Position numbers and translations under genes: made by a program. Shown here piece by piece: positions 17,941-63,777 of a stretch of DNA of 64,000 nt. The stretch lies in NCBI GenBank assembly GCA_045538455.1, contig JAZSRL010000009.1:14875-78874 (forward strand), written 5' to 3'. Source of the DNA: Clostridia bacterium (GTDB lineage Bacteria > Bacillota > Clostridia > Christensenellales > UBA1242). Below the pieces are notes generated by a model that saw nothing but the letters and a program-made list of their open reading frames with translations, was not told the DNA's origin and did not search any database. Each line of letters begins with the position of its first letter. Position 1 is the first letter of the stretch.

Positions 17941-17955
17941 GGAGATAAATTAAAG

Positions 17956-18717: not shown

Positions 18718-18739
18718 TAAATAAGGAGATAAATTAAAG

Positions 18740-19207: not shown

Positions 19208-19222
19208 GGAGATAAATTAAAG

Positions 19223-19647
19223 ATGATACAAGAAATAATTACAGATGAAGAAATCTTAGGTCAACGTTCAGATGAAATTGATAATGGAGAAACTTATGCA
19301 GAAAAATAACTTACAACAATTAGTTGTTGTCAAAAGTTGAGTTCGTAAAAATAGTCAAATTGAGCCCAACGACAACAAATGAACAGCAATTAAAGAAAAC
19401 AAAGTAGCAAAAGAAATCATTCAACTGCTGATAGATGAATTAGATAAAAATTATAATGATGAGGAGAAAAATACAAATGACAACAAATAGTAAAACAAAT
19501 TATGCAGTAGCAGACTGCAATGAAAATAATAAGCAAATTTATAAATCCCCTGAAGACGAATTGATGGAAAATATTATAAACATTTTTAATTCCTGACTTG
19601 AAAAACTTGCCGAACATTATGATATAAAGGAGAAAACCAATGAATAA
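19223..19647 (+). pseudogene. short ORFs interrupted only by frame change and TGA codons (decayed genes, or genes that originated under a TGA=Trp code)
   Basis: 19223-19309 encodes 28 aa behind the conserved junction. The ORF from the ATG at 19272 has in-frame TGAs at 19338 and 19380 and ends with TAG at 19488. The ORF from the ATG at 19477 has an in-frame TGA at 19594 and ends with TAA at 19645-19647, overlapping the recombinase ATG at 19640. Confidence 0.4.
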
Positions 19648-21358: not shown

Positions 21359-21417
21359 ATCAAAAGAAATAGTCTGTGATAAGAGTAGACTGTTTTCTTT
21401 AATTACATATTCACGAT

Positions 21418-22824
21418 TTACAGTTTTTCACAAGTAGTCTTGTTATCTTTTGATGTTTGGTTTAAGGCATTAATTTTAACCAAAGCAACCTGGAAAAATT
21501 TTCTAATCTGTTCTGAACGCTCAGAATCGTACTTTAAATTTTCTTTTTCGGTTAAATCACAAAAATATTTGTTATCCAATGTTTTTCTAACTTGATCAAA
21601 AGCATTGAATTTAGGAATGCCATTTTCATTTTTAATTGATGTAAAAACAAAAGTTCCTTCATCAAAACTGGCACTATGAACCAGTTTGTTTCCGTCCATC
21701 AAAGCGACTCCGTCAAAATAATGTGCCGGACTTTCTCCGTTTTCGCAGTTTTGTGCCACCAGACTACGCCAGTACTCAACCATAGCAGCATCTGATAATT
21801 CTTCTTTGCCAAATGGTCTGCGGATATGTAAATTGGGTTGGAGGTTCTCGGGTAGTTTTTCAATGTGCATACCCATATCCCAAGCAAAAGTCGGCATACC
21901 ACTAAGCTGACTTAATGCCGCTGCTTTGATAATCGCATTTTCAACCGCTGTCGTTCCATTTTCCTCGACATTAAGTTTCAAACCAAGTTCTTTCGGGGTA
22001 TGGAAATTTATGCCTAATCCATTGGCAGCCATTTTAATAAACTCGATTTTATGTTTATTATTGGTTGCAAGTAAAATATCCATGCGGAAATCTTTCTCGT
22101 GATTGATATTTGTTTTTGGGAATGTCGATTTTTTTGTTGGTTGATAATCCTGTCTGACTAAATCAATACGGCCCGGTTCTTCGCAAACTTTATGCTTTCT
22201 GGATTTGATGCGATTGATTTTGCAATACTCTTCTTTAAATTTATCCGGTTGCTTTAAGAGATTTCGCATATCGACAAGAAATTTTTTATAAACCTCATCT
22301 TCATAAAACATATTTTCTGGATTATCTTCACTGTACTTTTTCGCTAGTCTTTTAATTGTATAGTCCAAATAATCTTCAATGTTCATTTCGGGCATTCTTT
22401 CATGTGCCACAAAAAAGCTACGAATGAAAACAATTTCTATTGATGTGTTACGATCTGCTGACGATATCAGTTTACCATAAGGCGACCGTGGGTTATCTTC
22501 CTTCGACGAACGATGATCCTCAATCGCTTCTTTAATGATTAAGCGTTGTTCGTCATTAAAAAAATTGGACATATTTTTATCTTCAAAAAACATTTGACCA
22601 GCAATTAAATGATGTTGCTCATGGTCAAGATACTTTCCTAAATCATGGTACGAAGCTATCGCATAAAGCATATTCTCATCAAGGTTTAATTGAAATGTTT
22701 GATTCAAAACAAAACATCTTCTAATTACTTCTTTGATGTGAACAATATTATGCCCCAAATCGTTTTTTTCGTATAATGGCAAAATATTTTTGATAATATA
22801 ATTTTCCAAAAGCTGATTAACCAT
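21418..22824 (-). CDS. HD phosphohydrolase - Ham1/ITPase-like (non-canonical NTP pyrophosphatase) fusion protein
   Basis: 468 aa. The N-half has HNIVH...SYHDLGK...EDHR (HD-domain metal ligands). The C-half has ILLATNNKHKIEF and VEENGTTAVENAIIKA...GMPTFAWDMG (RdgB/Ham1 pattern). Confidence 0.6.
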   Translation of the reverse strand: MVNQLLENYIIKNILPLYEKNDLGHNIVHIKEVIRRCFVLNQTFQLNLDENMLYAIASYHDLGKYLDHEQHHLIAGQMFFEDKNMSNFFNDEQRLIIKEAIEDHRSSKEDNPRSPYGKLISSADRNTSIEIVFIRSFFVAHERMPEMNIEDYLDYTIKRLAKKYSEDNPENMFYEDEVYKKFLVDMRNLLKQPDKFKEEYCKINRIKSRKHKVCEEPGRIDLVRQDYQPTKKSTFPKTNINHEKDFRMDILLATNNKHKIEFIKMAANGLGINFHTPKELGLKLNVEENGTTAVENAIIKAAALSQLSGMPTFAWDMGMHIEKLPENLQPNLHIRRPFGKEELSDAAMVEYWRSLVAQNCENGESPAHYFDGVALMDGNKLVHSASFDEGTFVFTSIKNENGIPKFNAFDQVRKTLDNKYFCDLTEKENLKYDSERSEQIRKFFQVALVKINALNQTSKDNKTTCEKL

Positions 22825-22943: not shown

Positions 22944-22980
22944 AACCTAATCCGCGCTGCGGGTTGGGTTTTTATTTTTT
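22944..22980 (+). terminator. rho-independent terminator with no upstream plus-strand gene
   Basis: AACCTAATCCGC-GCT-GCGGGTTGGGTT: a 12-bp stem that includes two G-U pairs (valid only on the plus-strand RNA), followed by TTTATTTTTT. Confidence 0.65.
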
Positions 22981-22989
22981 TGGGGGCTA

Positions 22990-23018
22990 TTGAAAAAGCG
23001 TGGGCAGTCATTTATAAT
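22990..23018 (+). promoter_or_regulatory. sigma-70-type promoter (TTGAAA-17 nt-TATAAT)
   Basis: Consensus-like boxes 22 nt upstream of the paralog B start, with RBS AAGGAAG in between. Confidence 0.6.
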
Positions 23019-23039
23019 ACAGTAAGGAAGCAAAAGTTT

Positions 23040-24143
23040 ATGCTGGAAGGATATCAAGTTGAAATTGGTAAAAGAAATTTAAATGCGGAAAACCATTGGG
23101 AATTGTTGGATTTGGCTAATTTAAGGTTTGAAAAGCCAACAGTTTTGTGTTTATCAGGCGATGGGACACGGACCAACCAGCAAGCTAATGCTTTTGCGAA
23201 ACAAGCCGAACGGCATTTAGATTTGATGTTTTCCGCACAACACAACTATCGGACTTTGGACCAAGTTGATATTTTAGGTGTTAAATATGCACCCTTAATT
23301 GGAACGCTGACCAAACCGGCAACCAAGCAACTGGTTGATGCTATGATGAAGTTATGCGTAGATTCAAATGGCAACCGATTGAGTTTGGAACAAGCCAAGC
23401 AAAATATGTCGCGTTTAACATTTTTTACTTACTGTTATGGTCATAGTGCTTTGAATTTTATCATCTTTGATTTGAATAAAGAACTGGCAGAAGTTGGCTA
23501 TCGGGAAGATGAAATTACCGCGATTAACAACGCCACAAGCGAAGTATGTTATGCACCGCTGGCAACTTGGAACAAAGTTCCGAGTGTACGCGTCATTAGT
23601 TTACGAGATAATGAAATGACTTTGCCTTTAAGTAACGGGTTGGGACAATTTACCGACAGTCAATTACACCAATTATTAAATGGCGTCCATTTACACCAAG
23701 ATGCAGCAGGTTTAATGTATGGAAAGACTATGGACGAAGACACAAACACCGCTGGCAGTATTCAAATTATTTCATCGGGGTTATTAAATTCTTACAGCGG
23801 TGAAATCAACGAACACGCGGTTAGTTTGACAGCACGCGACCAAGATTGGCAGCTTAAACCAACAAATATGTATGGCGAATTTTATTACGCACCAAATGCC
23901 GATTGTGTTTCGCAGATGATGGCATGGGCTTTGTGCAAAGGTGTGGAAAATAGTCTTCAAAATTTCCAAGCCCCAAAATATATTCCCAATACTTACTGGC
24001 AAGAATTGATACCTGATTTTAAATCGATCATTCACAGTTTTGGTCGGAAAAAATTATCGAAAAATATTATTCGTGAAAAAAGATTTTACCAAGCAATCAA
24101 CCAAGACATGCCAACCGCAAAAGATATTGGCATCGAAATTTGA
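23040..24143 (+). CDS. hypothetical protein, paralog B (N-domain only)
   Basis: 367 aa from the ATG behind the AAGGAAG RBS; I consider the track's TTG start at 22980 unlikely. It is colinear with the N-domain of paralog A and ends in ...DIGIEI with a TGA stop. Confidence 0.75.
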   Translation: MLEGYQVEIGKRNLNAENHWELLDLANLRFEKPTVLCLSGDGTRTNQQANAFAKQAERHLDLMFSAQHNYRTLDQVDILGVKYAPLIGTLTKPATKQLVDAMMKLCVDSNGNRLSLEQAKQNMSRLTFFTYCYGHSALNFIIFDLNKELAEVGYREDEITAINNATSEVCYAPLATWNKVPSVRVISLRDNEMTLPLSNGLGQFTDSQLHQLLNGVHLHQDAAGLMYGKTMDEDTNTAGSIQIISSGLLNSYSGEINEHAVSLTARDQDWQLKPTNMYGEFYYAPNADCVSQMMAWALCKGVENSLQNFQAPKYIPNTYWQELIPDFKSIIHSFGRKKLSKNIIREKRFYQAINQDMPTAKDIGIEI

Positions 24144-49348: not shown

Positions 49349-50746
49349 TTACGCATTAAAGTTTTCTACATGAACGCGGATTGTTTGTTCAAAGATTCCA
49401 TCACCGTTCCAATCAAAATACCATTCTAAGTCGTTATTCTTTTTTACATCATCAAGATTAATTTCTAATATTGCAAGAACTCCTTTTACAATGTCACCGT
49501 TATAGCTATATTGCGCATTTTCGCTATCGTAGATATCTGGATTTACCAAATTGATTTTAACGGTTTGACCATTGTTTTGACTGTTATTCCAATCTAATCT
49601 GTATAAATCGAAATATTTAAGTATTGTTTTTTCTTCACCATTTTCGTCTTTAATAGTTATTTCTATATGTTCATCATTGCTTACAAAAAGGTCAAGATTT
49701 TCGTTTTTATTTACATTATTTTCAGCAAATAAATTTTGTTTGAATTCACCATCGAAATGGTTACATCCGTCACGGTTACAAATGTTTTCGAAACATAAGT
49801 AACGCTTAGTTGATTTTGTTTTATTTTCAACTGCTACATGATTATGTCCTAATGCATTGATAACATAATCGGTAGTTATTTCTGTGCAAGCTTCATCTGT
49901 GAATTTTCCGTCACATTCACTGCAATGATAATATGCGTGGTTACCAGCGGTTTCACAAGTTGCAGGTGTAGCTTCAACATATTCAATTTCGTGATCAAGT
50001 TTACCAACAGTAACATCAATTGGATTCAAAGCTTGTTCGTTTGCAAATTTTAATCCGCAATCTTTATTTTTACATTTATAGTGTGCAATATGACCTTCTG
50101 TGGTACAAGTTGCAGGTGTAGCTTCAATAAAATCTAAATCATGTTCAATTTCAATTTTCAAAGCTTCCGCAGTAGTGGTTGTTTCACCGTCTTTGTCTGC
50201 GTATTTTTGTCCGCAAACTTTGCATTCATAGTGTTCTGCCATACCTGGTTGATAACATATTGCATCAGTTGCTTTGACAAAAATGATGTCATGTTTGTTA
50301 GTTTTGGGATATTTAATAAAATCGTCACTAACATCTTTTATGCAATTTGCGTCTTCGAAATAATCGCCGCAATACATACAAGTGTAATATTCGATATTAC
50401 CTTCGTGTGCGCAGTTTGCTTTGATTTCTGCTACATGGTGATGTTCATTGGTTTCGTGATGAGCTTTTTTAATCACTTTCCAACTTGCTAATTCGGTAGA
50501 TGTCATTTCTACCAAACCTTCAGCGTCCGCAAAATACTTTGCGCAATCTGGGCATTCCCAGTAATCTTTGATACCTGTTTCTTGGCAGGTTGCCGCATGA
50601 CCAGTAACTTTGGTCAATGGGTGTTCATGTGCGGTAGTATTATCCGCTGCTCCAAGGTTGGGCCATTGCATCGTTGCTACAACACCGAAAACTACCCCGA
50701 TGATTCCGATACAGAAAAAGAGCCCGATTTTTTTAAATGTGTTCAT
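49349..50746 (-). CDS. secreted or membrane-anchored Cys-rich repeat protein
   Basis: 465 aa with an N-terminal hydrophobic anchor and five repeats of A(T/N/I)C..(E/P/A)G....Y.C..C...(F/Y).D. Confidence 0.65.
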   Translation of the reverse strand: MNTFKKIGLFFCIGIIGVVFGVVATMQWPNLGAADNTTAHEHPLTKVTGHAATCQETGIKDYWECPDCAKYFADAEGLVEMTSTELASWKVIKKAHHETNEHHHVAEIKANCAHEGNIEYYTCMYCGDYFEDANCIKDVSDDFIKYPKTNKHDIIFVKATDAICYQPGMAEHYECKVCGQKYADKDGETTTTAEALKIEIEHDLDFIEATPATCTTEGHIAHYKCKNKDCGLKFANEQALNPIDVTVGKLDHEIEYVEATPATCETAGNHAYYHCSECDGKFTDEACTEITTDYVINALGHNHVAVENKTKSTKRYLCFENICNRDGCNHFDGEFKQNLFAENNVNKNENLDLFVSNDEHIEITIKDENGEEKTILKYFDLYRLDWNNSQNNGQTVKINLVNPDIYDSENAQYSYNGDIVKGVLAILEINLDDVKKNNDLEWYFDWNGDGIFEQTIRVHVENFNA

Positions 50747-52555: not shown

Positions 52556-53863
52556 ATGATGATGCAAGTACAAGCTTTAAAAGAAGTGCAAAATGGCGTA
52601 TTAAGCAAATTTCCGTTGCTAGGGCCTGTAATGCAAAAATTAGTTTTTGAAATTACAGATAAAACAGAAACGGCGGATACGAACGGTAATAATGTATGGG
52701 TATCACCGTCATTTTTAGAGAAGTTAAGTTTTGAAGAAAAAATTGCTTTATTTGCGCATGAAGTAATGCATGTGGCTTTTGACCATATTATCCGCAGTAA
52801 AAATCGTATTGCATACTATTGGAACATTGCCACTGATGCTGTGATTAATCAAATGATTATCGATGCAGGGTTACCACTACCCCAAGGTGGAATTAATCTT
52901 CCTAATGCACGCGGAAAATCCGCGGAAGAAATGTACGAACATGTCTTAATGCATAAAGACCAATTCAAAGAAGAGCCGCAAAGTGACACTAGTCATGACA
53001 ATCATCAAAACACAGGAGAAATGTCGGTTGGTAATCATGAATTGTGGGAAGAAGCCTTAAAACAATTGGAACAAGAACAAGGCGATAAGCAAACACAAAC
53101 AACCAAAGCCGAATTATCCAATGCTCGCGAAAAACAGTTCACACAGGTTAATGAAAAATTGAAACAAAAATTGGCGCGAAAAATTATGGAAGATTTAAAA
53201 GCTGAAAAAGGTCTGGCGCATGGTGAAAATCAAGGTGCTATGAAAACTGATTTAGGAGCTGTTGGTGAAGCACAGCCGATTGAAAATTGGCAAAAAGTTT
53301 TGAGACGAAAATTTAAGGAGTTGGAAGAAGCCTATTGGTCTTACCGCAGAGCTGACCGCAACAATGATTGGCAACCACGCGTTGAGTATAAATATCGTGA
53401 AGACAAAGCTTTGGTGGAAGTTATGTTGGATACCAGTGGCTCGGTTGACGATAATTTGTTGCGTGGTTTTTTAAGGGAGATTAAAAATCTAGTGCGTAAT
53501 GCCGAGTTAAAAGTTGGTTGTTTTGATACCCAATTTTATGGATTTCAAAGTATCAAAAAAGTGTCAGATATTGACCAATTGCAAATTGTAGGGCGTGGCG
53601 GAACCAGTTTTGATGAAGCACTTGCTCATTTTTCAAAAGAGCGTATGCAAAATGTTTATAAAATTATTTTTACTGACGGCTTAGATGTTGTTACCGATAA
53701 AGAAGAAAACCGAAGAATTAAAAATTTATTTTGGTTGGTTTGGCGTGATATTGAGTTCAAACCATGTTGCGGAAAAGTTTTAAAAGTAGATCCTAATGAA
53801 ATCCGTCAAATGTTTAAAGAAAACCAAGCACATCAAAATGATGATCTTGGTCGTACGCGTTAA
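52556..53863 (+). CDS. Zn-metallopeptidase-like / vWA-like two-domain protein (DUF2201-type)
   Basis: 435 aa. The N-half has ADTNGNNVWV, HEVMHVAFDH (HExxH) and WNIATDAVIN. The C-half has VMLDTSGSVDD (MIDAS-like) and GRGGTSF. Confidence 0.75.
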   Translation: MMMQVQALKEVQNGVLSKFPLLGPVMQKLVFEITDKTETADTNGNNVWVSPSFLEKLSFEEKIALFAHEVMHVAFDHIIRSKNRIAYYWNIATDAVINQMIIDAGLPLPQGGINLPNARGKSAEEMYEHVLMHKDQFKEEPQSDTSHDNHQNTGEMSVGNHELWEEALKQLEQEQGDKQTQTTKAELSNAREKQFTQVNEKLKQKLARKIMEDLKAEKGLAHGENQGAMKTDLGAVGEAQPIENWQKVLRRKFKELEEAYWSYRRADRNNDWQPRVEYKYREDKALVEVMLDTSGSVDDNLLRGFLREIKNLVRNAELKVGCFDTQFYGFQSIKKVSDIDQLQIVGRGGTSFDEALAHFSKERMQNVYKIIFTDGLDVVTDKEENRRIKNLFWLVWRDIEFKPCCGKVLKVDPNEIRQMFKENQAHQNDDLGRTR

Positions 53864-53914
53864 AAATTTGGGTCTTGAATTTAGTGGTTTGAATATAATA
53901 TAATAAGAACTTAT

Positions 53915-55045
53915 ATGCAATTATCTGAATTAATCGTTCCTGTAAAATCAAATAACACAACAAATAAACACTTTGTTACGACTGATATGTTTTATTTGCC
54001 ATCTCGTGAAGATATTTTAAAACAGATTGATTTTTATGAAAGAAGGTATACAAGTGATTATGCAAAAATTAATGCTCGGATAGCAAATAACCAACAAACA
54101 AAAACGGTTTATGCTAATTCAATTGTGAACATGTGGACTTGTTCTGGTGTTGATTTAAAAGATGAAAAAAAAGTTTTTACTTTTAATGTAGAAGATTGTA
54201 GTAACCCCAATAGTTGTTTAGAGAAAAGTGAGTTCAAATTACAAAAACCATGGCAACGCGATTTAGGACAAGGTATTTGCCCACAAATAAAAATGGATAT
54301 TGATGCTTTCTTAGCCGTGCAAGATAAATTTTTTAAAACCAAAAAAGATGCAGATAAGTTTAAAATTCAAAATGATTTTTGCATTAAATCATTTTTAATG
54401 GGTGATTATCCAAAAACTCTTTTAGATGAAAGTGATGCTTGGCAATTGGAAAATTTAAGGCATGATGGTTTTTTAGTTCCCACAGGAAAGTTTTATATGG
54501 GTTGTTTTGTTGGTGAAAATAATAAACCGATTCGCCATGCTGAATATGTTTCAAATTTGACCAATACGCGTTATGTTCGTGTCAATCTTGATACACAAAA
54601 AGAGAGTTATTGGTTTACTGTTGAACCATTAGAATGGGATATTTTAAATTGGAGCGATTTACCGCAATCGATTAATCCAAACGGAAACGGAACAGCACAA
54701 CATATTGAATTGGTTTGTAGTTATGTGGTTAACGCAGGAATACCCTTTTTCCCGCACGAAGAAATCAATGCTCATTTATGGCAAAACAGTCCGATTCGTG
54801 GGTACCTCAATGGATATGATTTGAAGCAGTTAAAAAAGAACATCAACCCGCGTTATGCGGTGGGTAATAATTATCAATTCAGTCAACAAAATTTTATTAA
54901 CGAAGCTTTTGCAGAAGAAAAAGAATTGATTCGAGATATTGATATCAAAACTAAACAACAACCAAAAAAATTAAGAATTGTCATTAATCATGGACAAGGT
55001 TTAAAAATTAACCAAACAAGCCAAACGCATAATCAAATTATTTAA
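53915..55045 (+). CDS. array paralog P1 (two-part module only)
   Basis: 376 aa with MQLSELIV..., MFYLPSREDI, ICPQIKMDIDAFL, MGDYPK, PTGKFYMG, YWFTVEPLEWDILNWSDLPQSINPNGNG, GIPFFP and LWQNSPIRGYLNGYDL...NFINEAF. Confidence 0.75.
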   Translation: MQLSELIVPVKSNNTTNKHFVTTDMFYLPSREDILKQIDFYERRYTSDYAKINARIANNQQTKTVYANSIVNMWTCSGVDLKDEKKVFTFNVEDCSNPNSCLEKSEFKLQKPWQRDLGQGICPQIKMDIDAFLAVQDKFFKTKKDADKFKIQNDFCIKSFLMGDYPKTLLDESDAWQLENLRHDGFLVPTGKFYMGCFVGENNKPIRHAEYVSNLTNTRYVRVNLDTQKESYWFTVEPLEWDILNWSDLPQSINPNGNGTAQHIELVCSYVVNAGIPFFPHEEINAHLWQNSPIRGYLNGYDLKQLKKNINPRYAVGNNYQFSQQNFINEAFAEEKELIRDIDIKTKQQPKKLRIVINHGQGLKINQTSQTHNQII

Positions 55046-55130
55046 ACAGAAAAATATTTCATAAAAAATTTTTTTGAATGGGTATTGCAAATTGAAAATT
55101 AAGAGCTTATGCTATGTTAAGGAATTTGAT

Positions 55131-56315
55131 ATGGAATTATCTGATTTAATTATTAAAACAAATTTAAGTAACACGACACCACATGGTTGTATTGGTAACT
55201 CTGCTTGGGATACGCAAGACCAAGTTTTTGTGGAATCAATCCCTGAGTTTGAAGCCCATGCGTCAGAAGAAAGTAGTTTAAATCGATGTTTCCCAACCGC
55301 GTATGCTTTGATTAATCATGCCATACCTTACAAAGGACATGGTGATTTGAATTGGAAATTAATGGAAAATAAAGTTTCTGGAATGAAATCAGCGTGTAAT
55401 TATTATCTGCGTTCTAATCATGAAAATCAAGTTGCGATTGTTGATGCGGAAGGTGAAATTAAATATTCAACTTCACACAGCAATGGAGAAAATATTGGAA
55501 TTCGTCCTTGTTTATTTTTAGATGTACCAACCTTTTTGCAAATTAAAAAAGGTTTAGATCGTATTGGTTATTGGGGTTCAGAATTTCAGATTTGTAAAGA
55601 TTCAAAATGGAATGGTCCATTAATGAAATTGGGAGAATTTCCCCAATCACATTCTTGCCGTAATACAACTTTTTATCAAGAAATAAATTACAATTATTGT
55701 GATGAGGAAAAAGAAGAACAAGTAAGAGCTGGTGATTTAATTCCAACGGGTAAAACTTTTATGGGTAGTTATGATGCTAGTACGGGAAAATTTAGTGAAG
55801 GTGTGGAATATGAATACAATCTTCCCTGGCCCATTAAAATGGTGCGATATTGTTATGATAATCGTAATATCGGTTATTGGTTTGATGTAGAGCCAATTCT
55901 TTGGGATATTGAAAATTGGTCTGATTTACCCAAAGAGATTAATCCGGAAGGTAACGGCACCACTGCTGTAATTAAACTTCGCGCGCAAAAAGCAATTATC
56001 AGTGGTATTCCTTTTAATATTAATCAAAACCACCCTAATGCAAATTTATGGGGAAACAGTTCATTGCGTGGTTATTTAAATGGTTATGATTTGCGCAGTA
56101 TTGAAAATCGTAATATTAGAAACCTTGAACACATTGCTTTGTGTGGTGGAAATTTTAAAGACCATAATTTTTTAAATGAAGCAATGGGACGCGTCAAGGG
56201 TTTAATTCAAGAAATTAATTTATTAAAAGATAATAAAAAATCGCGACAACGCCCAATCAAACAAAACGCATTAAAAATGAATTTAAAAGCAACCGAAATA
56301 GGAAAATCATTATGA
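55131..56315 (+). CDS. array paralog P2 (two-part module only)
   Basis: 394 aa from the ATG behind the AAGGA RBS, with MELSDLII..., YYLRS, GIRPCLFLDVPTFL, LGEFPQ, PTGKTFMG, YWFDVEPILWDIENWSDLPKEINPEGNG and LWGNSSLRGYLNGYDL. Confidence 0.75.
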   Translation: MELSDLIIKTNLSNTTPHGCIGNSAWDTQDQVFVESIPEFEAHASEESSLNRCFPTAYALINHAIPYKGHGDLNWKLMENKVSGMKSACNYYLRSNHENQVAIVDAEGEIKYSTSHSNGENIGIRPCLFLDVPTFLQIKKGLDRIGYWGSEFQICKDSKWNGPLMKLGEFPQSHSCRNTTFYQEINYNYCDEEKEEQVRAGDLIPTGKTFMGSYDASTGKFSEGVEYEYNLPWPIKMVRYCYDNRNIGYWFDVEPILWDIENWSDLPKEINPEGNGTTAVIKLRAQKAIISGIPFNINQNHPNANLWGNSSLRGYLNGYDLRSIENRNIRNLEHIALCGGNFKDHNFLNEAMGRVKGLIQEINLLKDNKKSRQRPIKQNALKMNLKATEIGKSL

Positions 56316-56722
56316 CACAAGCATCGCAAAAAGTTATCCGTGATATTTTAACGAAACTAACTAGTCAGCCATTTGTGATTGGCGGCGTGTCTGCGAAAAA
56401 TTTTCCAGATGCTGTTGTGCTTCCTGCTACTACTCCGTCAGCGGAATTGGGGATTATTCCGCAAGATAAAGGTTATCAACATCCGAAGTGGTTATTAACT
56501 TTGATGATGAAAGCACACGCCAAAAAGAAAATTTTACTCTGTATCGATGGGATTGATGCTTTGCCATTCAGCGAACAAGCAAAGTTTTGTGGCATCTTAA
56601 AATATAAAGGTTTAAATGGTTTCGCTTTCCCGCAAGAAACGCAAATCATTGTAACAGCGAAACAGATTGATAATGTATCCCCAGTAATTAAAGATTTTTG
56701 TTTGCTTTATCAAGCGGAATAA
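56312..56722 (+). CDS. stand-alone degenerate AAA+ core (P3)
   Basis: 136 aa with an ATGA overlap on P2. It aligns by eye with the ATPase core of P4/P5, but Walker A is decayed (PFVIGGVSAKNF vs PVMLHGPSGIGKS) and Walker B is LLCIDGID (vs ILFIDELT). Confidence 0.6.
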   Translation: MTQASQKVIRDILTKLTSQPFVIGGVSAKNFPDAVVLPATTPSAELGIIPQDKGYQHPKWLLTLMMKAHAKKKILLCIDGIDALPFSEQAKFCGILKYKGLNGFAFPQETQIIVTAKQIDNVSPVIKDFCLLYQAE

Positions 56723-56774
56723 TTTGATAACTCTTGAAAATATTGGGTTATCAGTGGTATGCTGCTTATGAAAA

Positions 56775-58769
56775 ATGAGTATGCGTTTAGAAGATATTAT
56801 TGTCTCGACATATTTAGAAGATGCAAAAATTAGCGATCGCATTTTTTTGCCGTCCACAAATGAAATTGCGCAGAGTATTTTATTTGATATTAAAACGGTT
56901 GGTTTAGCTGAAATTGGTTTTAAAAATAATTCTCAAAACAGTTTAGAGAAAAATGGTTCTTTTTGGACGCGTGACCGTGCGGCGTTTGAAACGGATAAAC
57001 TTAATTATTATGATGTAAAATTTGGACTGCGTACAACTTTTTACGATGATATAAATGTTGGTTTGCGTCCGTGCATGAATTTAGATATTAATGCTTATTT
57101 AGATTTACAAGAAGCTATGAAAAAGCGTCATGATGATGAAAAGTACGCTTTTTATCGAGACACTGAAGATAAAGAACATGATTATATGTTATTAGATTTT
57201 GGTGAATATCCGCGGGTTGTTGTAAACGGCGATAGGAATTTTGAAAATGAAAAAGACCGTTTAGTGAAAACCAATCGTAAATATCTGTTAGCTTTTGATA
57301 AAATTGTTGGGCGACCTGTTTTGTGTTCTGAGAGTGAATTAGACGGTCAAAAATATGTCAAGGTTGCCACAAACAATCGCATCTATTATTTAGCGAATAA
57401 ACCGTTGGCTTGGATTGTAACCAATTGGCACGAGATGCCGCGTGAAATTAATGCACTAGGAAATGGCAAAGCGCAAACAATTAAGCTAATCACGCGCAAT
57501 GTGATTAATTTTGGTGTTCCATTTTATCGTACGAGTAATTTTGATCCGGCAAAGTTTAAATTCAAAAATAATAAGACGCTATGGCAAAATAGTACCCTGC
57601 GTGGCTATTTAAATGGTTATGATTTATCGACATTGAACGCTGGTAATTTTACAGAATACAATTTTATCGAGGAAGCATTTACCAAAGAAAGAGAAATATT
57701 ACAAACCATTGAATGTCGAAATAAAATTAATCACAAAGGTTGGGATGTTAAATTTGGTGAACAACCTTTAAATGAAATGGAGCAATTACGCAAGTATGTG
57801 GAGCATGGATATCCTGTGATGTTACATGGTCCTAGTGGGATTGGTAAATCGCGGCGCGTGCAAGAAATTGACCCAAACTATGTTTCAATAACTTTGCGGA
57901 ATGGAATGTTGCCGGAAGAGATTATTGGCAAAAATATTTTTATTAATGAAAAAGATGTAAAAGCGGGACAATGGCAAGCGCCAGCTTGGTATACAGATTT
58001 ATGTGAAAAATGTGCCAAAGAACCCGAGAAGCAACATATTTTATTTATTGATGAGTTGACGAATGTGCGTGAACAAGAACAATCAAGTATTTTTCATCTT
58101 GTATTAAATCGTTCTGTGATGCCAAACTGCGGCAAACTGCCAGAGAATGTTTCCATTGTGGCGGCCGGTAATAGCATGGAAGAAAGTACGGCAGCTTATC
58201 AAATGGCGGAACCTTTGGAGCGAAGATTTTATGGTCACATTTATTTTGAACCCAATATTGCGGATTGGTTAGATTGGGCCAGTCGTATGAACGAAAATAA
58301 AGGACATTTAAATGTGCATCCATTAGTGACGGCTTTCGTGGCTTCCATGAGAGATGCCGTCTTCTGTCCGCAGCAAGACCCAAATGATACCAAGAAATAT
58401 AATTATAAAATTGACCCACGCGCTTGGGAACAAGTGAGTGATTTAATTTATGATAACGGTGGCATGATTTACAAAGAAATTATCGCGAATAAAATCGGAC
58501 CGTTATTGACAAATGCTTTGGTGGCGTTTGCGAAGAACCCACCACTCACGGCAGAAGATATTGTGAGCGGAAATTATTCCCAAGTTGAGATACCGCGAAA
58601 AATTGACCAGCAATATATTTTAGCTATGGCGTGGCGTTATGCGAAACCAGAACAAGTTCCAGCTATTCGTGAATTTATTAGCCGTGAATTTGGTGATGAA
58701 ATTTTATCCGTTTATGATGGCGCGCGAGCTTTGGTAGCAAAAAGCATAAAATCTGAATTAGAGAAATAA
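56775..58769 (+). CDS. array paralog P4: two-part module fused to a MoxR/AAA_5-type ATPase
   Basis: 664 aa with RIFLPSTNEI, GLRPCMNLDINAYL, FGEYPR and LWQNSTLRGYLNGYDL, followed by VMLHGPSGIGKS (Walker A), ILFIDELTNV (Walker B), VAAGNS and EPLERRF. Confidence 0.8.
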   Translation: MSMRLEDIIVSTYLEDAKISDRIFLPSTNEIAQSILFDIKTVGLAEIGFKNNSQNSLEKNGSFWTRDRAAFETDKLNYYDVKFGLRTTFYDDINVGLRPCMNLDINAYLDLQEAMKKRHDDEKYAFYRDTEDKEHDYMLLDFGEYPRVVVNGDRNFENEKDRLVKTNRKYLLAFDKIVGRPVLCSESELDGQKYVKVATNNRIYYLANKPLAWIVTNWHEMPREINALGNGKAQTIKLITRNVINFGVPFYRTSNFDPAKFKFKNNKTLWQNSTLRGYLNGYDLSTLNAGNFTEYNFIEEAFTKEREILQTIECRNKINHKGWDVKFGEQPLNEMEQLRKYVEHGYPVMLHGPSGIGKSRRVQEIDPNYVSITLRNGMLPEEIIGKNIFINEKDVKAGQWQAPAWYTDLCEKCAKEPEKQHILFIDELTNVREQEQSSIFHLVLNRSVMPNCGKLPENVSIVAAGNSMEESTAAYQMAEPLERRFYGHIYFEPNIADWLDWASRMNENKGHLNVHPLVTAFVASMRDAVFCPQQDPNDTKKYNYKIDPRAWEQVSDLIYDNGGMIYKEIIANKIGPLLTNALVAFAKNPPLTAEDIVSGNYSQVEIPRKIDQQYILAMAWRYAKPEQVPAIREFISREFGDEILSVYDGARALVAKSIKSELEK

Positions 58770-58833
58770 ACTTGGTTTGACTCTTGAATTTGAATGATTG
58801 AAATGTTAATCTATGAAGAAAGGATTTGATGGT

Positions 58834-60954
58834 ATGTTAATTAATGATTTGTTAAGTTCCAAGGTTTTATTAAATACGGATTTAAGTGGCTATTGGGGAA
58901 GCCAAGATTTTAATACGCGTGATATGTTTTTTATTGAGGGAGATTATGATGACCCACAATTAACGCAAGCCACAGATTTTGCAATTTTAAATAAAGCATT
59001 AAACACGCAAGATGAAAATTTTAATCCTGAGGTTTTGGGTAAGTTTCCGTCTTGCCGTGTTTGGTTACGAACAGGTGGACAAGATGGTTTAGGGATTGGT
59101 CGTGTTTATATTCGCAATGAAGCAGGTAAAAAATTTTTTGTCACACCATACGAAAGAAATTTATCGCAAGGTATATCTCCGCGCACGCGCATGGATTTGT
59201 CAGCATTTTTGAAAGTGCGAAGTTGGTTGGACAAGAATCGAAAAGATGACCAACAGACTTTAAGTGTTCAGCCTGTTGAAGGTCAAAACGGTGTTTTGTT
59301 GTTTGGTGAGTATCCGCAAAAATATGTTGGCGATAATTTTAACAAACAACTAGAAGAAGCTTTGGAACATCGCGTGATTGTTCCGACAGGGAAAACTTAC
59401 ACTGGTTGTTTTGATAAAAAAAATGACAAACCAAATTATTACTTTGAATACGAAGTTAACGGTAAACGCTATGTGCGGGTGAATAAAGGACCACGCAATG
59501 ATGGTTACTGGGTAGAAGTTACGCCTTTGGTTTGGGAAATTGAAAATTGGAACGATTTACCAGTTTCGATTAATCCGCAAGGTAGCGGTACCGCAGTATG
59601 TTTGGATTTAGCGTCAAAATATGTATTAATGGCGGGAATTCCTTTTTATCCAAATCTTACCGATGATAATAATAACTTATGGCAAAATAGTTCGCTGCGT
59701 GGATTTTTGAACGGTATTAATGTTAACAACATTAAAGAAAATGGAAATACGAATTACACTGCTCCGCGTGGTGGCGATTTTACGCATTATAATTTTATCC
59801 AACAAGCTTTTGCCAGTGAAATTGAAATATTAAAAATGGTTGATTCTTATCAAAAAAAGTCTCGATTGGGTTGGGGAATTAAAATCGAAGAAAAACCTTT
59901 GTCGGTTAATGAGCAATTACAAAAATATATCCAAAACGGACACACGGTCATGTTACATGGTCCCAGTGGGATTGGTAAATCACATCGTGTGAAAAAAATT
60001 GACCCCGACTTTGTTTCCATTACATTACGCAATGGAATGTTGCCGGAAGAAATTATTGGCAAGAATATTTTTCTTGATGAAAAGAATGTGAACTCTGCTC
60101 AATGGCAGGCACCAGCATGGTATAACGATTTGTGTGAAAAGTGCGCGCAAGAGCCAAACAGGCAACATGTGTTGTTTATTGATGAGATTACGAATGTGCG
60201 CGAGCAAGAACAATCTGCGGTATTCCATATTATTTTGGAACACTCAATTGGGCCCAATATTGGTAAATTGCCAGCTAATGTCTCGGTTGTGGCGGCGGGT
60301 AATAGTTTAGAAGAAAGTTTGGCCGCTTATCAAATGGCGGAACCGTTAGAGCGTCGTTTCTTCGGTCATGTTTACATTAAGCCTAACATTCCGGAGTGGT
60401 TAGAATGGGCAAGCGAGCCCAATGAAGACCCCCATAAAGCGCAACAAGGTCGTCTCAATATTCACCCGTTGGTAGCGGCCTTTGTGGCTTCGGTTGGTAT
60501 GGAATATTTTTGTCCACAGTATGAGCAGGACAATCCGCCTAAATATAAGATTGATCCGCGTGGTTGGCAACAAATCAGTGATATGATTTATGATAACGGT
60601 AATACAATTTATTTAGAATTAATCCGTAATAAAATTGGACCGATGTTAGCGGATACTTTTATGACATTTGCGAAGACACCTGCCCTCACGGTACAAGATA
60701 TCGTCAGTGGTAATTATGCTCGGCACGAAATTCCCCATAATTTAGATATGCAATATGCGATGGCTATGATGTGGCGTTATGCGAAAATGGATGAAGTGGC
60801 TGCTGTGCGTCAATTTATTGACAAAGAGTTCAACCATGAAATTTTAGCGGTTTTCGATGAAGCATGGGCAAACACTCCGGAAAAAGCAATCTTTTTAAAT
60901 CAATTAAAACAACAAGAAGTTAGAGCGGAAAAACCCAGTCTTGAAAAAAACTGA
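58834..60954 (+). CDS. array paralog P5: two-part module fused to a MoxR/AAA_5-type ATPase
   Basis: 706 aa from the ATG behind the AAAGGA RBS (the track start at 58813 lies inside the predicted -10 region). The N-module resembles P6, and the ATPase half is about 80% identical to P4. Confidence 0.8.
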   Translation: MLINDLLSSKVLLNTDLSGYWGSQDFNTRDMFFIEGDYDDPQLTQATDFAILNKALNTQDENFNPEVLGKFPSCRVWLRTGGQDGLGIGRVYIRNEAGKKFFVTPYERNLSQGISPRTRMDLSAFLKVRSWLDKNRKDDQQTLSVQPVEGQNGVLLFGEYPQKYVGDNFNKQLEEALEHRVIVPTGKTYTGCFDKKNDKPNYYFEYEVNGKRYVRVNKGPRNDGYWVEVTPLVWEIENWNDLPVSINPQGSGTAVCLDLASKYVLMAGIPFYPNLTDDNNNLWQNSSLRGFLNGINVNNIKENGNTNYTAPRGGDFTHYNFIQQAFASEIEILKMVDSYQKKSRLGWGIKIEEKPLSVNEQLQKYIQNGHTVMLHGPSGIGKSHRVKKIDPDFVSITLRNGMLPEEIIGKNIFLDEKNVNSAQWQAPAWYNDLCEKCAQEPNRQHVLFIDEITNVREQEQSAVFHIILEHSIGPNIGKLPANVSVVAAGNSLEESLAAYQMAEPLERRFFGHVYIKPNIPEWLEWASEPNEDPHKAQQGRLNIHPLVAAFVASVGMEYFCPQYEQDNPPKYKIDPRGWQQISDMIYDNGNTIYLELIRNKIGPMLADTFMTFAKTPALTVQDIVSGNYARHEIPHNLDMQYAMAMMWRYAKMDEVAAVRQFIDKEFNHEILAVFDEAWANTPEKAIFLNQLKQQEVRAEKPSLEKN

Positions 60955-61006
60955 TAAAAAAAAGGCGCTACTTGAAATTGATGGCAAAATTTGGTAAATT
61001 ATCTTA

Positions 61007-62146
61007 ATGGATTTTGGTGATTTAATTTCGATTACGACTTTGGGTAATACTGATAACTTTGGTTGTGAGTTTGATTATAGATTTGATACTCATGACTATT
61101 TTTATTTGGACTCGCAACATGAAGCTGCGATGCGTTTGTTTCAGTGCAATTTAGGAGATAAAGCCAATTTAACTTTTCCAACAGATTACGCGCTTTTAAA
61201 CAAAGCAGTTTATTTTGAAGACCGTAATGATTTACACGCAAAACTGGCTATCAATCAAACAAAATCAAGAGTTGGTTGCCGTACATGGCTGCGTACTGCG
61301 GAGCGAGATGTTTTTGACAATGATTTACGCCGCGTAAGTGTGATTGATGAGTCTGGGCGGATTGATTCAGTTAATATGAAAGAAAATATTTTGCCACACG
61401 CAATTCGTCCGTGTGTGCAATTAGAAATTGACGCGTGTTTGGCTGTTTTAAAATACCAAGCAAAACAAAACAAACATAATAATTGTTTTGCTTTGGGTAT
61501 GGGTCAGATGAATTTGGGGACATACCCTACTTCGTATGTGGGTGAAGAAATAAATTGTGAGTTAGAAAAAAAATGGGAAGATGGGATTTTAAAATCAACT
61601 GGCAAAACTTATACTGGCCGCTATAATAACAAGCGTCAGTGTCTATCGCAATATGACGAATATGAAATTGATGGCGAAAAGTATGTGCGTGTTGATAAAG
61701 GTTTCAAAGGTAATGATGGTTATTGGGTAAAGGTTGAACCGATTGTTTGGGAAATCGAAAATTGGAACGATTTGCCCACGGCATTAAATCCCAAAGGTAC
61801 AAACCAAGCCGATACAATTAAATTACGCACGAAATCAGCTATCATAGCAGGAATTCCTTTTTATCCGAACACAGAAGATAAATACAATCATTTATGGCAA
61901 AACAGTACATTACGCGGTTATTTAAACGGCTATAATGTTAATTATATTCAGCATAATGGTTCACAGATTTACGGTGCGCCGCGTGGTGGAAACTTTGTCC
62001 AACAAAGCTTTATAAATGAAGCGATGGATAGTGTCATTGAACATATCCGCGCAGTTCGTTTTTACGGAAAGAAAAAGTTCATACCGACGATTGAAGCGAA
62101 TCCAAATGTTTTAAAAAATAAGCAAAATTTACAACAAGAAATTTAA
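61007..62146 (+). CDS. array paralog P6 (two-part module only, closest to the P5 N-half)
   Basis: 379 aa with CRTWLRT, AIRPCVQLEIDACL, LGTYPT, STGKTYTG, YWVKVEPIVWEIENWNDLPTALNPKG, GIPFYPN and LWQNSTLRGYLNGYNV. Confidence 0.75.
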   Translation: MDFGDLISITTLGNTDNFGCEFDYRFDTHDYFYLDSQHEAAMRLFQCNLGDKANLTFPTDYALLNKAVYFEDRNDLHAKLAINQTKSRVGCRTWLRTAERDVFDNDLRRVSVIDESGRIDSVNMKENILPHAIRPCVQLEIDACLAVLKYQAKQNKHNNCFALGMGQMNLGTYPTSYVGEEINCELEKKWEDGILKSTGKTYTGRYNNKRQCLSQYDEYEIDGEKYVRVDKGFKGNDGYWVKVEPIVWEIENWNDLPTALNPKGTNQADTIKLRTKSAIIAGIPFYPNTEDKYNHLWQNSTLRGYLNGYNVNYIQHNGSQIYGAPRGGNFVQQSFINEAMDSVIEHIRAVRFYGKKKFIPTIEANPNVLKNKQNLQQEI

Positions 62147-62224
62147 ATTAAAAAGTGAAATGTAGCTCTTGAAATATGATTTGTAATTATGATAAAATAT
62201 AAAAAATTAAAGGGATAATATGAT

Positions 62225-63163
62225 ATGGAGTTAAGAGAATTTATTGTACCAACAAAGGTTGGTTATGGGGATAACGAAGTTACAAATCGAATTTATTTAC
62301 CGAGTTACGAGGAGCTTGTGGAAAAATATAATTTCACAGCCCAAGATTTTATTGTCAAACAAGTAAACGATTCAAAAAATGAAACACTAAATACTTATTG
62401 GTTGCGCAATGATGCTTTGACGAAAATTTATTCGGGCTCAAAAGCGGAAGGTAGTGTTGGTGTTGATGGTAATCAACTCTCTATTCGCGTAATGCGTGAT
62501 GGTGTTTATTGTTTTGAAAAGATTGCGCTAAAAAAAACAGATATTGAAAGCGTTCATGATTATTTTAAAAATACATTACGCATGGTGCGCCCTTGTATGC
62601 GTGTTGACCTTGCGGCATATTTAGCGTTGGTTGAAAAATATAATAGCTATTTACCTTATAAACATGAAGATGAACACAAAAATTGTCAGTGTGTAAGCAT
62701 TGGTAAAAAGTTTGATATTTATGCGGGTAAAAAAACAAACAAAAGAATTGAATGGCGAATTTTAAATTGGGAAGATTTACCCAAATCAATCAATCCCGAA
62801 GGAAAAGATACAGCAACGACGCTCGATTTAATTAGTTTAAACGCGATAGGTTGTTCGCCTTTTATCGAAGACAGAAATGACCTGCAAAAAGACTTATGGA
62901 AAAATAGTGTCATCTGTCAAAAATTGAACGGTGAGAAAAACAAAAAATATAGTTTTATCGACCATGCTTTTAAAGAGGAAGAAATTTTATTACGCGGCAT
63001 TGAAAAACAAGATCATAAAAAGAAAACAACTTTAATCATTAACACTAACTCTGCGTACATAAAAGAAGATTTTATCAGAAGCCTTAGGGCTAATCCAAAA
63101 GTATTAAATGAATTGGTCCCAGCAATGAAATTATTAATCCAGGAAGCAGAAAAAATAAAATAA
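62225..63163 (+). CDS. array paralog P7 (shortened module)
   Basis: 312 aa with MELREFIV, RIYLPSYEEL, TYWLRND, MVRPCMRVDLAAYL, IEWRILNWEDLPKSINPEGK and LWKNSVICQKLNG. It lacks the GEYPQ segment. Confidence 0.7.
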   Translation: MELREFIVPTKVGYGDNEVTNRIYLPSYEELVEKYNFTAQDFIVKQVNDSKNETLNTYWLRNDALTKIYSGSKAEGSVGVDGNQLSIRVMRDGVYCFEKIALKKTDIESVHDYFKNTLRMVRPCMRVDLAAYLALVEKYNSYLPYKHEDEHKNCQCVSIGKKFDIYAGKKTNKRIEWRILNWEDLPKSINPEGKDTATTLDLISLNAIGCSPFIEDRNDLQKDLWKNSVICQKLNGEKNKKYSFIDHAFKEEEILLRGIEKQDHKKKTTLIINTNSAYIKEDFIRSLRANPKVLNELVPAMKLLIQEAEKIK

Positions 63164-63165: not shown

Positions 63166-63194
63166 AAAAAAGACACCGAAATGGTGTCTTTTTT
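63166..63194. terminator. strong bidirectional terminator closing the array
   Basis: AAAAAAGACACC-GAAAT-GGTGTCTTTTTT. Confidence 0.8.
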
Positions 63195-63330: not shown

Positions 63331-63777
63331 CTAATAGTCAATCCCGAGTTCGTCTAATAGTGGCGCTTTCATTTCCCACTGTTTAACTTGATTGCGTTTT
63401 TCAAACAAAGTTTCGGCTTCTAAATAATGTTTAGTTAAAGTTTCTAAACCACATTGATTGACTTGCATAAAATGATGTTTGGCTTGTTCACCATAACCAA
63501 TGCGCACGGAATTACGAAAATGTTTGACGCCATGACAGGCGGGACATAGCGCTTTAATTTCAACCAAAATCTGCGTACAACTGGGGATATCAAAATCCCA
63601 AACTTCATGGGCTTCCAAAGTTTCTGGCTTAGCACCACAAATCTCACATTGATAATCGGCAGCTTTGTAAGTTACACGACGCAATTGATTCCAGTTTCTT
63701 TTTGGTAAGGTAATACTAAAATCCTTACCCCAAGCACCTTTGGGCAATAAATCAATTGTTAATTTTAAATTATGCAT
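63331..63777 (-). CDS. Cys4/His zinc-ribbon protein (HNH-nuclease-like?)
   Basis: 148 aa with CEICGAK...LEAHEVWDF...CPACHGVKHF. The resemblance to small phage-type HNH proteins is from memory only. Confidence 0.4.
   Translation of the reverse strand: MHNLKLTIDLLPKGAWGKDFSITLPKRNWNQLRRVTYKAADYQCEICGAKPETLEAHEVWDFDIPSCTQILVEIKALCPACHGVKHFRNSVRIGYGEQAKHHFMQVNQCGLETLTKHYLEAETLFEKRNQVKQWEMKAPLLDELGIDY

Follow-up and report, generated by a model that had tools for sequence, protein, structure and literature searches.

The array and its genes

The window studied here is a stretch of 64,000 nucleotides from a Clostridia bacterium (Christensenellales; UBA1242), corresponding to positions 14,875 to 78,874 of the forward strand of contig JAZSRL010000009.1 (assembly GCA_045538455.1). 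It covers the oriC region (gyrB/gyrA, dnaA, dnaN, serS, glyS, gmk and pyk) and carries on its + strand, at 52556-63163, eight consecutive genes with short gaps or overlaps between them. These genes encode a metallopeptidase combined with a von Willebrand factor A (vWA) domain, two AAA+ ATPases fused to an N-terminal module (F1 and F2), four proteins that consist of this module without the ATPase (M1 to M4) and a small protein of 136 aa. The module itself comprises two parts, hereafter half 1 (N-terminal) and half 2. The features of the array are listed below with the evidence on which each assignment is based.

52556..53863, + strand: metallopeptidase-vWA protein, 435 aa (Pfam DUF2201_N and DUF2201, phrog_1314)
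53915..55045, + strand: M1, module-only paralog with a short tail, 376 aa (paralog alignment, AlphaFold2 model)
55131..56315, + strand: M2, module-only paralog, 394 aa from the ATG (Pfam DUF6273; the mechanical open reading frame begins at a TTG at 55074)
56312..56722, + strand: small protein, predicted pseudo-AAA+, 136 aa (hhalign, AlphaFold2, Foldseek)
56775..58769, + strand: F1, module-ATPase fusion, 664 aa (Pfam DUF6273 and AAA_5, phrog_1297), with a permuted DUF6273-like module at about 56775-57719 and a MoxR/AAA_5-like ATPase with a C-terminal helical region at about 57735-58769
58834..60954, + strand: F2, second fusion with the architecture of F1, 706 aa from the ATG at 58834 (phrog_1297; the mechanical open reading frame begins at 58813)
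61007..62146, + strand: M3, module-only paralog, 379 aa (paralog alignment, sub-threshold DUF6273)
62225..63163, + strand: M4, shorter module-only paralog, 312 aa, without the beta-rich insert of half 2 (paralog alignment)
63166..63194, + strand: intrinsic terminator hairpin AAAAAAGACACC-GAAAT-GGTGTCTTTTTT, directly 3′ of the last stop codon

At 56312-56315, M2 and the small gene overlap by the stop codon of the former and the start of the latter, and such overlaps together with the short gaps imply co-translation. The terminator that closes the array may act in both directions, since its hairpin is palindromic and associated with A and T runs. The maximum 19-residue Kyte-Doolittle mean among the eight proteins is 1.30, and hydropathy thus reveals no signal peptide or transmembrane segment; all of them are predicted to be cytoplasmic. 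An original prediction made on this DNA had already placed eight open reading frames and the terminator at these positions and noted the lack of export signals. It had also described an HExxH motif and a MIDAS-like vWA half in the first gene, a family of six paralogs sharing one two-part module that resembles DUF6273 with its halves in the opposite order, and the continuation of two of these paralogs into a MoxR-type ATPase. All of these elements were recovered, by the list of open reading frames for the genes and by the searches reported below for the domains. The 136-aa open reading frame had however been counted and left uninterpreted, so that a conserved third component was missed.

Domain content of the encoded proteins

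The product of the first gene carries both DUF2201 domains in N-to-C order: DUF2201_N (PF13203), a putative metallopeptidase (E = 2.8e-25; 89.9 bits for a gathering cutoff of 23.2), and the vWA-like DUF2201 (PF09967; E = 8.2e-12; 45.8 bits for a gathering cutoff of 26.4). Its full length is covered by phrog_1314 (E = 7.8e-63). The N-terminal domain is zincin-like with an HExxH motif and the C-terminal vWA domain bears a complete metal ion-dependent adhesion site (MIDAS; DxSxS...T...D). Among 25 homologues of this vWA-peptidase, residues H68, E69, H72, H77, D292, S294, S296 and D374 are invariant and T350 is found in 23. The ratio of nonsynonymous to synonymous substitution rates (dN/dS) of the gene is 0.15-0.20 against close strains.

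The ATPases of F1 and F2 possess Walker A (GPSGIGKS), Walker B (ILFIDE(L/I)), sensor-1 (VAAGNS) and AEPLERRF motifs, whose columns are invariant or nearly so across 64 family members; Walker A and Walker B are intact in 58 of the 58 ATPases of the family, including orphan ones. The last of these motifs fits the pattern 'N..E......(P/A)E(A/P)L..RF' located after sensor 1, which we take to be a MoxR signature. The assignment by Pfam is borderline, as AAA_5 (PF07728; gathering cutoff of 22) gives 22.9 bits for F1 and 18.9 bits, below the cutoff, for F2, and the scores of AAA_3 and Sigma54_activat are about as weak. The match to phrog_1297 ('ATPase') is strong for F1 (3.6e-36) as well as for F2 (1.3e-36). 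A sequence search of solved structures with the ATPase yielded weak best matches, CbbQ (E = 0.016) and McrB (E = 0.87). A metagenomic protein of 706 aa (P0001) is 98% identical to F2, and the dN/dS of F2 is 0.06-0.16. From their motifs, both ATPases are predicted to be active MoxR/AAA_5-like enzymes that would assemble in hexameric rings and hydrolyze ATP.

The 136-aa protein has no match in Pfam, NCBIfam, PHROG or PADLOC, and a direct BLASTP comparison with F1 gave nothing. Its relationship with AAA+ proteins was revealed only by profile-profile and structure comparisons. An alignment of 22 homologues from related loci displays the pattern LVIDGID...EQxKF...TQII, and hhalign aligned this family with the neighbouring ATPase family over 61 columns that correspond to the segment from Walker B to sensor 1 (E = 6.6e-5, probability 64%). 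The AlphaFold2 model of the protein is confident (mean predicted local distance difference test score, pLDDT, of 92.4) and all of the top 50 matches listed by Foldseek against the PDB are AAA+ proteins (dynein AAA modules, RFC, Lon, McrB, Rea1), with probabilities of 0.99-1.00 and TMq of 0.44-0.64, and 23 matches have E ≤ 1e-3. A P-loop motif is absent from the 22 aligned homologues; the Walker B position reads (L/V)(C/V)ID(G/E/K/S) in this family and DG instead of DE in the protein of the window. The protein is thus a stand-alone AAA+ alpha/beta core, predicted to be catalytically inactive, i.e. a pseudo-AAA+ protein. Its detectable homologues (n = 30) all have about 112-141 aa. Its sequence is that of 'hypothetical protein IKT33_02210 [Clostridia bacterium]' (100% identity); this sole named match and every mapped locus come from metagenome-assembled genomes (MAGs) of gut Clostridia. 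The dN/dS of its gene is 0-0.13. Because a few of its homologues give marginal matches to NACHT or NPHP3_N (E of 0.01-0.03), a distant iSTAND-like relation is possible.

The six paralogs (starts at 53915, 55131, 56775, 58834, 61007 and 62225) align over about 330 aa with 30-36% identity and 24 invariant columns. They are also visible as DNA repeat families (D2-D4, D6 and D8), and the repeats that involve the array in the window are paralogous coding regions with 60-80% identity and nothing else. The Pfam model DUF6273 (PF19789; 172 positions, gathering cutoff of 23.5 bits) matches F1 (30.9 bits) and M2 (28.3 bits) above the cutoff and M1 (19 bits), M3 (18.4 bits) and M4 (20.4 bits) below it, and F2 has no DUF6273 match in the Pfam scan. 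In these native modules, the N-terminal 130 aa or so correspond to profile positions 56-171 (residues 5-131 in M2), whereas residues around 283-350 correspond to positions 27-69; no native sequence matches the whole model collinearly. With half 2 placed in silico before half 1, a single collinear stretch (profile positions of about 24-171) is obtained for five of the six sequences and the scores rise by 2-7 bits, reaching 34.3 bits for M2 (positions 25-171), 21.8 for M3 and 24.9, now above the cutoff, for M4. An exhaustive profile search also found the module in the same order within secreted giant proteins (P0207 and P0215) that carry tandem canonical DUF6273 domains and Listeria-Bacteroides (Flg_new) repeats. 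The motifs of P0215 succeed one another as WxNSxLR, LPSxxE, WLR, FGxY, WxNSxLR, LPSxxE, WLR and RPA, and the profile of the module aligns to its residues 483-807, i.e. to the C-terminal half of copy 1 and the N-terminal half of copy 2. This alignment across the junction of two tandem copies is the signature of a permutation by duplication and truncation. On these sequence grounds, we assign the module to a circularly permuted form of DUF6273 rather than to its standard members. None of the profile searches run on the array proteins puts it in a housekeeping enzyme family, in agreement with the original prediction.

Canonical DUF6273 is reported to be a C-type-lectin-like receptor-binding domain that is diversified in gut phages by diversity-generating retroelements (DGRs), whose variable region lies at the C-terminal end of the domain (PMC10743442; bioRxiv 10.1101/2024.10.15.618418), and it forms the N-terminal domain of the IgA protease ThomasA (PMC12402451). 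The AlphaFold2 model of M1 is confident (pLDDT of 87.1, predicted template modelling score of 0.86) and has no Foldseek match in the PDB or BFVD, so the lectin-like fold attributed to the module is a prediction drawn from sequence profiles and literature; an order-dependent search may miss a lectin fold that is permuted and bears an insert. Relative to canonical DUF6273, half 2 holds an additional beta-rich insert, which M4 lacks. The module-only paralogs retain the linker and the first helix leading to the ATPase (invariant Pro after the NFxxEAF helix), which suggests that they are former fusions whose motor was lost and that they may still dock to the ATPase. The permuted module is also found at the N-terminus of other large proteins: P0276 (973 aa), where it is combined with BspA-type leucine-rich repeats and which has no signal peptide, P0221 and P0270. 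Proteins of the P0276 type point to further, putatively cytoplasmic architectures built on this module.

Distribution, genomic context and evolution

At least 237 relatives of the fusions were found. An exhaustive search of representative sequences, whose query alignment retained the ATPase columns, gave 302 clusters (50% identity, E ≤ 1e-30) in which relatives of the module and of the ATPase are mixed. A word-indexed search with a module-only alignment returned five proteins, its sensitivity being too low, and an exact-sequence look-up of M1 (P0121) matched no contig. All the named relatives of the fusions belong to uncultured gut Clostridia from animals and humans, some of them labelled Christensenella, Catabacter or Eubacteriales.

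The neighbourhood of the ATPase family was mapped in 54 loci from species-representative genomes using open reading frames and phmmer. In 21 of them, the genes follow the fixed order ATPase (with or without module), small protein, vWA-peptidase, hereafter the triad, and one further locus has the vWA gene without the small gene. The ATPase family is thus genomically coupled to the vWA protein in the window and in 22 of the 54 related loci. The expectation that the ATPase would be found next to a vWA-peptidase in other genomes is therefore borne out by these 22 loci, but the neighbour is not obligate as the ATPase stands alone in the other 32. One or two module-only paralogs often follow the triad, and orthologues of M4 of about 310 aa are located after the vWA gene in four loci (L001, L009, L012 and L030). 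A clustering of all flanking open reading frames revealed no fourth conserved family, ATPase, small protein and vWA-peptidase being the sole recurrent ones. Some triads include a bare ATPase or an ATPase with an unassigned C-terminal extension, and Pfam detected no domain in the C-terminal extensions of module-less or long ATPases. Since the triad occurs without the module, the lectin fusion is read as an add-on to it. The order seen in the window (eight genes, vWA gene first) is common only to the close relatives L007 (96%) and L008 (68%).

Some genomes carry three to five loci of the family. In MGBC144555, MGBC157798, MGBC121240, 8-6_110307.18 and the Lapin bins, three to five orphan ATPases each were found, most of them module fusions; their Walker motifs are intact and no small or vWA gene is adjacent in the fetched loci. 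The loci of these orphans are L020, L022, L025, L028, L029, L031, L032, L034-L041, L044, L046, L047, L049, L050, L053, L056 and L058-L060. Another locus, L064, has a prophage-like block (12796-22148) encoding a large serine recombinase, HTH repressors, RecT and an ERCC4 nuclease after the fusion and the small gene. As this block occupies the position expected for the vWA-peptidase gene, it suggests an integration into this gene or its replacement.

The regions of the fusions evolve at very different paces. Across the 64 fusions, the mean pairwise identity is 74% for the ATPase core (74% between F1 and F2), 54% for the C-terminal region (56%), 41.7% for half 2 (40%) and only 29.5% for half 1 (14.5%), and conservation is at its lowest in the block between WLR and RPC. 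Half 1, which evolves fastest, matches DUF6273 positions 56-171, the C-terminal part in which the literature puts the variable region of DGRs. Relative to two strains that are about 96% identical, dN/dS is about 0.06-0.6 for every gene of the array, implying that all of them are functional and under purifying selection. In the comparison with L007, the pooled ratio of nonsynonymous to synonymous differences is higher in half 1 than in half 2 (odds ratio of 2.2, p = 0.004) and than in the ATPase (odds ratio of 2.8, p = 0.0004), which is suggestive of positive selection in this strain pair only.

The strains also differ by their gene content. The whole M1 cassette, which is present in L007, is absent from the 96%-identical L061 by a clean indel, 1193 nt of the window (53864-55056) being replaced by 84 nt in L061 (6141-6224); the M2 gene call of L061 has 394 aa. 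Homology with L061 ends at 63171. Beyond this point, L061 carries a Dam-type methylase, a DpnII endonuclease, an N6/N4 methylase and an AAA_23/AAA_21 ATPase (14393-19622), and the window carries an HNH endonuclease gene (63331-63777, - strand; phrog_5200, 2.5e-31).

Several other features of the window deserve mention. A 465-aa protein with a hydrophobic N-terminus, many Cys-x2-Cys and His-rich repeats and no Pfam match is encoded at 49349-50746 (- strand), between pyk and the acyltransferase/GT8 gene pair, and is kept in L061. An integrated element of low GC content (0.28-0.33) lies at 9571-21358 beside a divergent tRNA-Gln pair. Its products include an AAA_14/DUF4143 ATPase, a Rep-like protein of the rolling-circle type, an EcoRI-like adenine methylase encoded next to an HNH nuclease, and a large serine recombinase. 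At 16492-19207, an S-adenosylmethionine riboswitch (SAM-I/IV, 50.3 bits) is followed by four small open reading frames without Pfam match, and three starts (about 17957, 18349 and 18740) are almost identical in their ribosome-binding and start context (repeat family D5). Finally, 6797-7846 and 23058-24077 are inverted paralogous stretches, 74-82% complementary over about 1 kb, which lie within open reading frames without Pfam match (6101-7873, - strand, and 22980-24143, + strand) and bracket tRNA genes and the mobile element.

Relationships with known systems and possible functions

Part of the architecture described here has precedents. A pair formed by a MoxR ATPase and a metallopeptidase-vWA protein was reported in jumbo phages and predicted to be a chaperone and its co-chaperone, with a role in virion assembly that was proposed from the parallel with the MoxR and vWA proteins of Acidianus two-tailed virus (Iyer et al. 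2021, PMC7824862). The pair of jumbo and N4-like phages belongs to the same two protein families (PHROGs 1297 and 1314), combines metallopeptidase and vWA in the same order within one protein and, like the relatives of the array, has the ATPase gene upstream and small genes in between (gp7, gp6, gp5 and gp4 of Erwinia phage MIF8). However, identity with the phage proteins is only 24-28%, and the phages have neither an N-terminal lectin-like module on their ATPases nor a paralog array. The intervening small proteins of MIF8 were compared with the pseudo-AAA+ protein as candidate homologues and are unrelated.

The vWA-MoxR ternary conflict systems associate a MoxR ATPase and a vWA protein with a third component (VMAP, iSTAND, FtsH or beta-propeller) and occasionally carry C-lectin (FGS) or metallopeptidase effector domains (Kaur et al. 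2020, PMC7159879). Cytoplasmic C-lectin domains diversified by DGRs and linked to MoxR or STAND proteins were proposed to be antigen sensors (Doré et al., bioRxiv 10.1101/2023.09.22.558884). The array shares with the ternary systems the MoxR-type ATPase, the vWA protein, a third conserved component and the attachment of a peptidase to vWA; iSTAND provides a precedent for an inactive P-loop NTPase as third component, and cytoplasmic C-type-lectin domains are the proposed sensors in these systems as in our reading of the array. None of the four third components that define these systems was seen in the array. It differs from them by its own third component, a bare 136-aa AAA+ core whose closest relative is the neighbouring ATPase, and by its lectin domain, which is of the DUF6273 type, permuted and borne by the N-terminus of the ATPase instead of the vWA or VMAP protein. 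It also lacks effector-associated domains, a DGR and any PADLOC match, and is hosted by unicellular-type gut Clostridia instead of multicellular actinobacteria or cyanobacteria. Among the eight array proteins, Pfam detected no FtsH or beta-propeller match (E ≤ 0.1), VMAP and iSTAND having no model to test.

Canonical DUF6273 domains are found in the tentaclin and Mtd-like receptor-binding proteins of gut phages, at the N-terminus of ThomasA and as tandem copies in surface proteins with Flg_new repeats. The module of the array shares with them the motifs FGxYPQ, WxNSxLRxYLN, (F/Y)LPSxxE, WLR and RPC/RPA but has swapped halves, no signal peptide or Ig-like partner, a predicted cytoplasmic location and a fusion with an ATPase.

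The Mg-chelatase BchI/BchD pairs an active AAA+ ring with a subunit in which an inactive AAA+ domain is joined to a vWA domain with a MIDAS. This enzyme (along with CobS/CobT and NorQ/NorD) offers the best structural analogy for a pseudo-AAA+ protein coupling a ring to a vWA protein. In the array, however, the inactive AAA+ core is the product of a separate gene, the vWA protein carries a metallopeptidase and there is no substrate subunit of the chelatase H type; membership of the array proteins in BchI/BchD-type families was not detected by sequence, the CbbQ match mentioned above being the best one in the PDB.

A literature search on the component domain families and on MoxR-vWA systems found no description of this architecture. 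The original prediction of an undescribed system thus stands for the fusion of a lectin-like module to the ATPase, for the pseudo-AAA+ protein and for the array of paralogs, which are new, but not for the core pair of MoxR ATPase and peptidase-vWA protein, which is already known from phages and from phrog_1297 and phrog_1314.

Direct observation covers which domains are present, that their catalytic motifs are intact, how the genes are linked, how unequally they are conserved and that they are under purifying selection. At the level of architecture, these observations are accompanied by a supported view of the array as the operon of one machine, whose active AAA+ ring, dead AAA+ adaptor, vWA-tethered zinc peptidase and diversified lectin-like modules would form a complex. 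Its history and mode of action may be as follows. An ATPase of this lineage would have gained an N-terminal ligand-binding domain, later copied into paralogs devoid of ATPase. The permuted lectin modules, whether borne by the ring or free, would each recognize a ligand of their own, protein or glycan, by means of their fast-evolving half, and ATP would power the remodelling of the bound client by the ring. The dead AAA+ subunit would probably couple the ring to the vWA protein, in the way that BchI is connected with the vWA domain through the inactive AAA+ domain of BchD. The MIDAS site would then hold the client and the attached metallopeptidase would cut it, so that one motor could serve a whole germline-encoded set of lectin-type sensors.

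We tentatively favour a role of such a recognition-module-guided AAA+/protease machine in the cytoplasmic surveillance of foreign (phage) molecules, with proteolysis as output; ligand recognition, client cleavage and the role in conflict are what we infer here. The preference is based on the sensor-like evolutionary pattern, the turnover of cassettes, the expansion of paralogs and the precedents for this design. That the array represents a new class of cytoplasmic innate-immune receptors, in which a diversifying repertoire of permuted C-type lectins located on, or docking to, a MoxR-type ring would, once a ligand is recognized, activate the vWA-tethered metalloprotease through the pseudo-AAA+ adaptor, is a bolder proposal that we consider doubtful. 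The sensor/adaptor and conflict-system role put forward by the original prediction likewise keeps the status of a conjecture: defence genes are adjacent in only one of seven annotated contexts, without a consistent defence-island context.

Several observations weigh against a surveillance role. The classical role of MoxR-vWA pairs is that of assembly chaperones. A relative with a fusion of only about 42% identity carries the triad at the matching site, right after pyk and syntenic next to gmk-pyk, which, near oriC and at such a low identity, points to stable vertical inheritance rather than to a mobile defence island; other loci adjoin gyrAB, uvrC, transporter or surface-protein genes and are mostly in housekeeping neighbourhoods. 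In PADLOC-DB v2, eight of the nine proteins scanned have no match and F2 has a weak one in its AAA region (PDC-S01, E = 0.0039), and the array encodes no classical toxic effector. The ATPase, nearly always as a module fusion, lacks an adjacent vWA-peptidase in 32 of the 54 loci. A dN/dS above 1 is limited to one small segment and, in the comparison with L061, the contrast of half 1 with half 2 (p = 0.38) or with the ATPase (p = 0.16) is not significant. Lastly, Foldseek gave no usable match for the M1 model (best E of 0.1 in the PDB and 0.056 in BFVD).

The first rival explanation is a housekeeping chaperone-protease, in which the ring and its vWA co-chaperone would mature, assemble or control the quality of endogenous clients and the modules, free paralogs included, would be substrate adaptors for different host proteins. 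Given the stable housekeeping context and the lack of matches in defence databases, we regard this explanation as possible and nearly as likely as surveillance. It agrees with the established role of MoxR-vWA pairs as maturation or assembly factors (NorQ/NorD, CbbQ/CbbO, BchI/BchD, RavA/ViaA; PMC7159879) and with a locus that is chromosomal, close to oriC, syntenic and under purifying selection. Candidate clients would be very large DUF6273-bearing surface proteins before their export, or glycosylated or lipid-linked precursors. The module is homologous to the tandem DUF6273 domains of secreted proteins with Flg_new repeats, and an acyltransferase and a GT8 glycosyltransferase gene are located directly upstream of the array on the same strand. 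However, these two neighbours are not conserved in other loci. Furthermore, an identity as low as 14.5% between tandem modules carried by 74%-identical motors would be unexpected for adaptors, as would the presence or absence of a cassette between near-identical strains and the three to five orphan paralogs per genome.

The genes could also be neighbours through their duplication history only, the fusions and module-only paralogs acting alone, perhaps in ATP-driven binding or remodelling, and the vWA-peptidase and small protein forming a separable unit that co-occurs with them in some genomes. The many loci in which the ATPase has neither a small nor a vWA gene beside it (32 of the 54), genomes rich in orphans such as MGBC144555, 8-6_110307.18 and the Lapin bins, the intact Walker motifs of these orphans and the association of permuted modules with other partners (e.g. 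the BspA-type leucine-rich repeats of P0276) all fit this explanation. We nevertheless consider it unlikely, since in mapped loci the small and vWA genes always accompany an adjacent family ATPase, the order is fixed in 21 loci that include fusions 33-68% identical to F2 as well as module-less ATPases, and the overlapping or closely spaced genes imply co-translation.

A domesticated or decaying phage module, with the ATPase and the peptidase-vWA protein as virion-assembly chaperones and the lectin-like proteins as leftover receptor-binding proteins, is very improbable. The strongest family matches of the array are to PHROGs (phrog_1314 at 7.8e-63, phrog_1297 at about 1e-36), its homologues in N4-like and jumbo phages form a pair for which a role in virion assembly was predicted (PMC7824862), phages use DUF6273 for receptor binding (PMC10743442) and an HNH endonuclease gene lies just downstream. 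However, no phage record or IMG/VR contig carries the fusion and no capsid, tail, terminase, integrase or other structural phage gene adjoins the array, for which reason prophage or phage cargo was rejected; the low identity to phage proteins, the unrelated small proteins of MIF8, the purifying selection on all genes and the stable chromosomal site also argue against this origin. As for the paralogs being DGR targets like the canonical DUF6273 proteins of gut phages, DUF6273 is a documented target and the most variable stretch of the module corresponds to the half of this domain that holds the variable region (PMC10743442; bioRxiv 10.1101/2024.10.15.618418), but this is effectively refuted for the window, where the 64 kb contain no template/variable repeat pair, the annotated flanks, those of relatives included, encode no reverse transcriptase and the strains differ by ordinary point substitutions whose dN/dS is below 1 for the most part.

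The module offers a clear example from nature of circular permutation by tandem duplication, in a family that is relevant to phage-host recognition in the gut. To our knowledge, almost no molecular biology is available for its hosts, uncultured gut Clostridia including MAGs labelled Christensenella or Catabacter. MoxR-vWA pairs are widespread and, as far as we know, few of their clients are documented. With a ligand-binding domain on the motor, a free-standing dead AAA+ subunit and a protease on the vWA partner, the array makes client recognition approachable by experiment. If it is an immune system, it would reveal a new sensor logic, in which arrays of permuted C-lectin paralogs take the place of DGR hypermutation or repeat-domain sensors, and would assign a function to a gene pair that N4-like and jumbo phages conserve. 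If, furthermore, it does represent a class of innate-immune receptors, it would be a lectin-based counterpart, with a protease output, of NLR/Avs sensors, derived from a gene pair shared with virulent phages.

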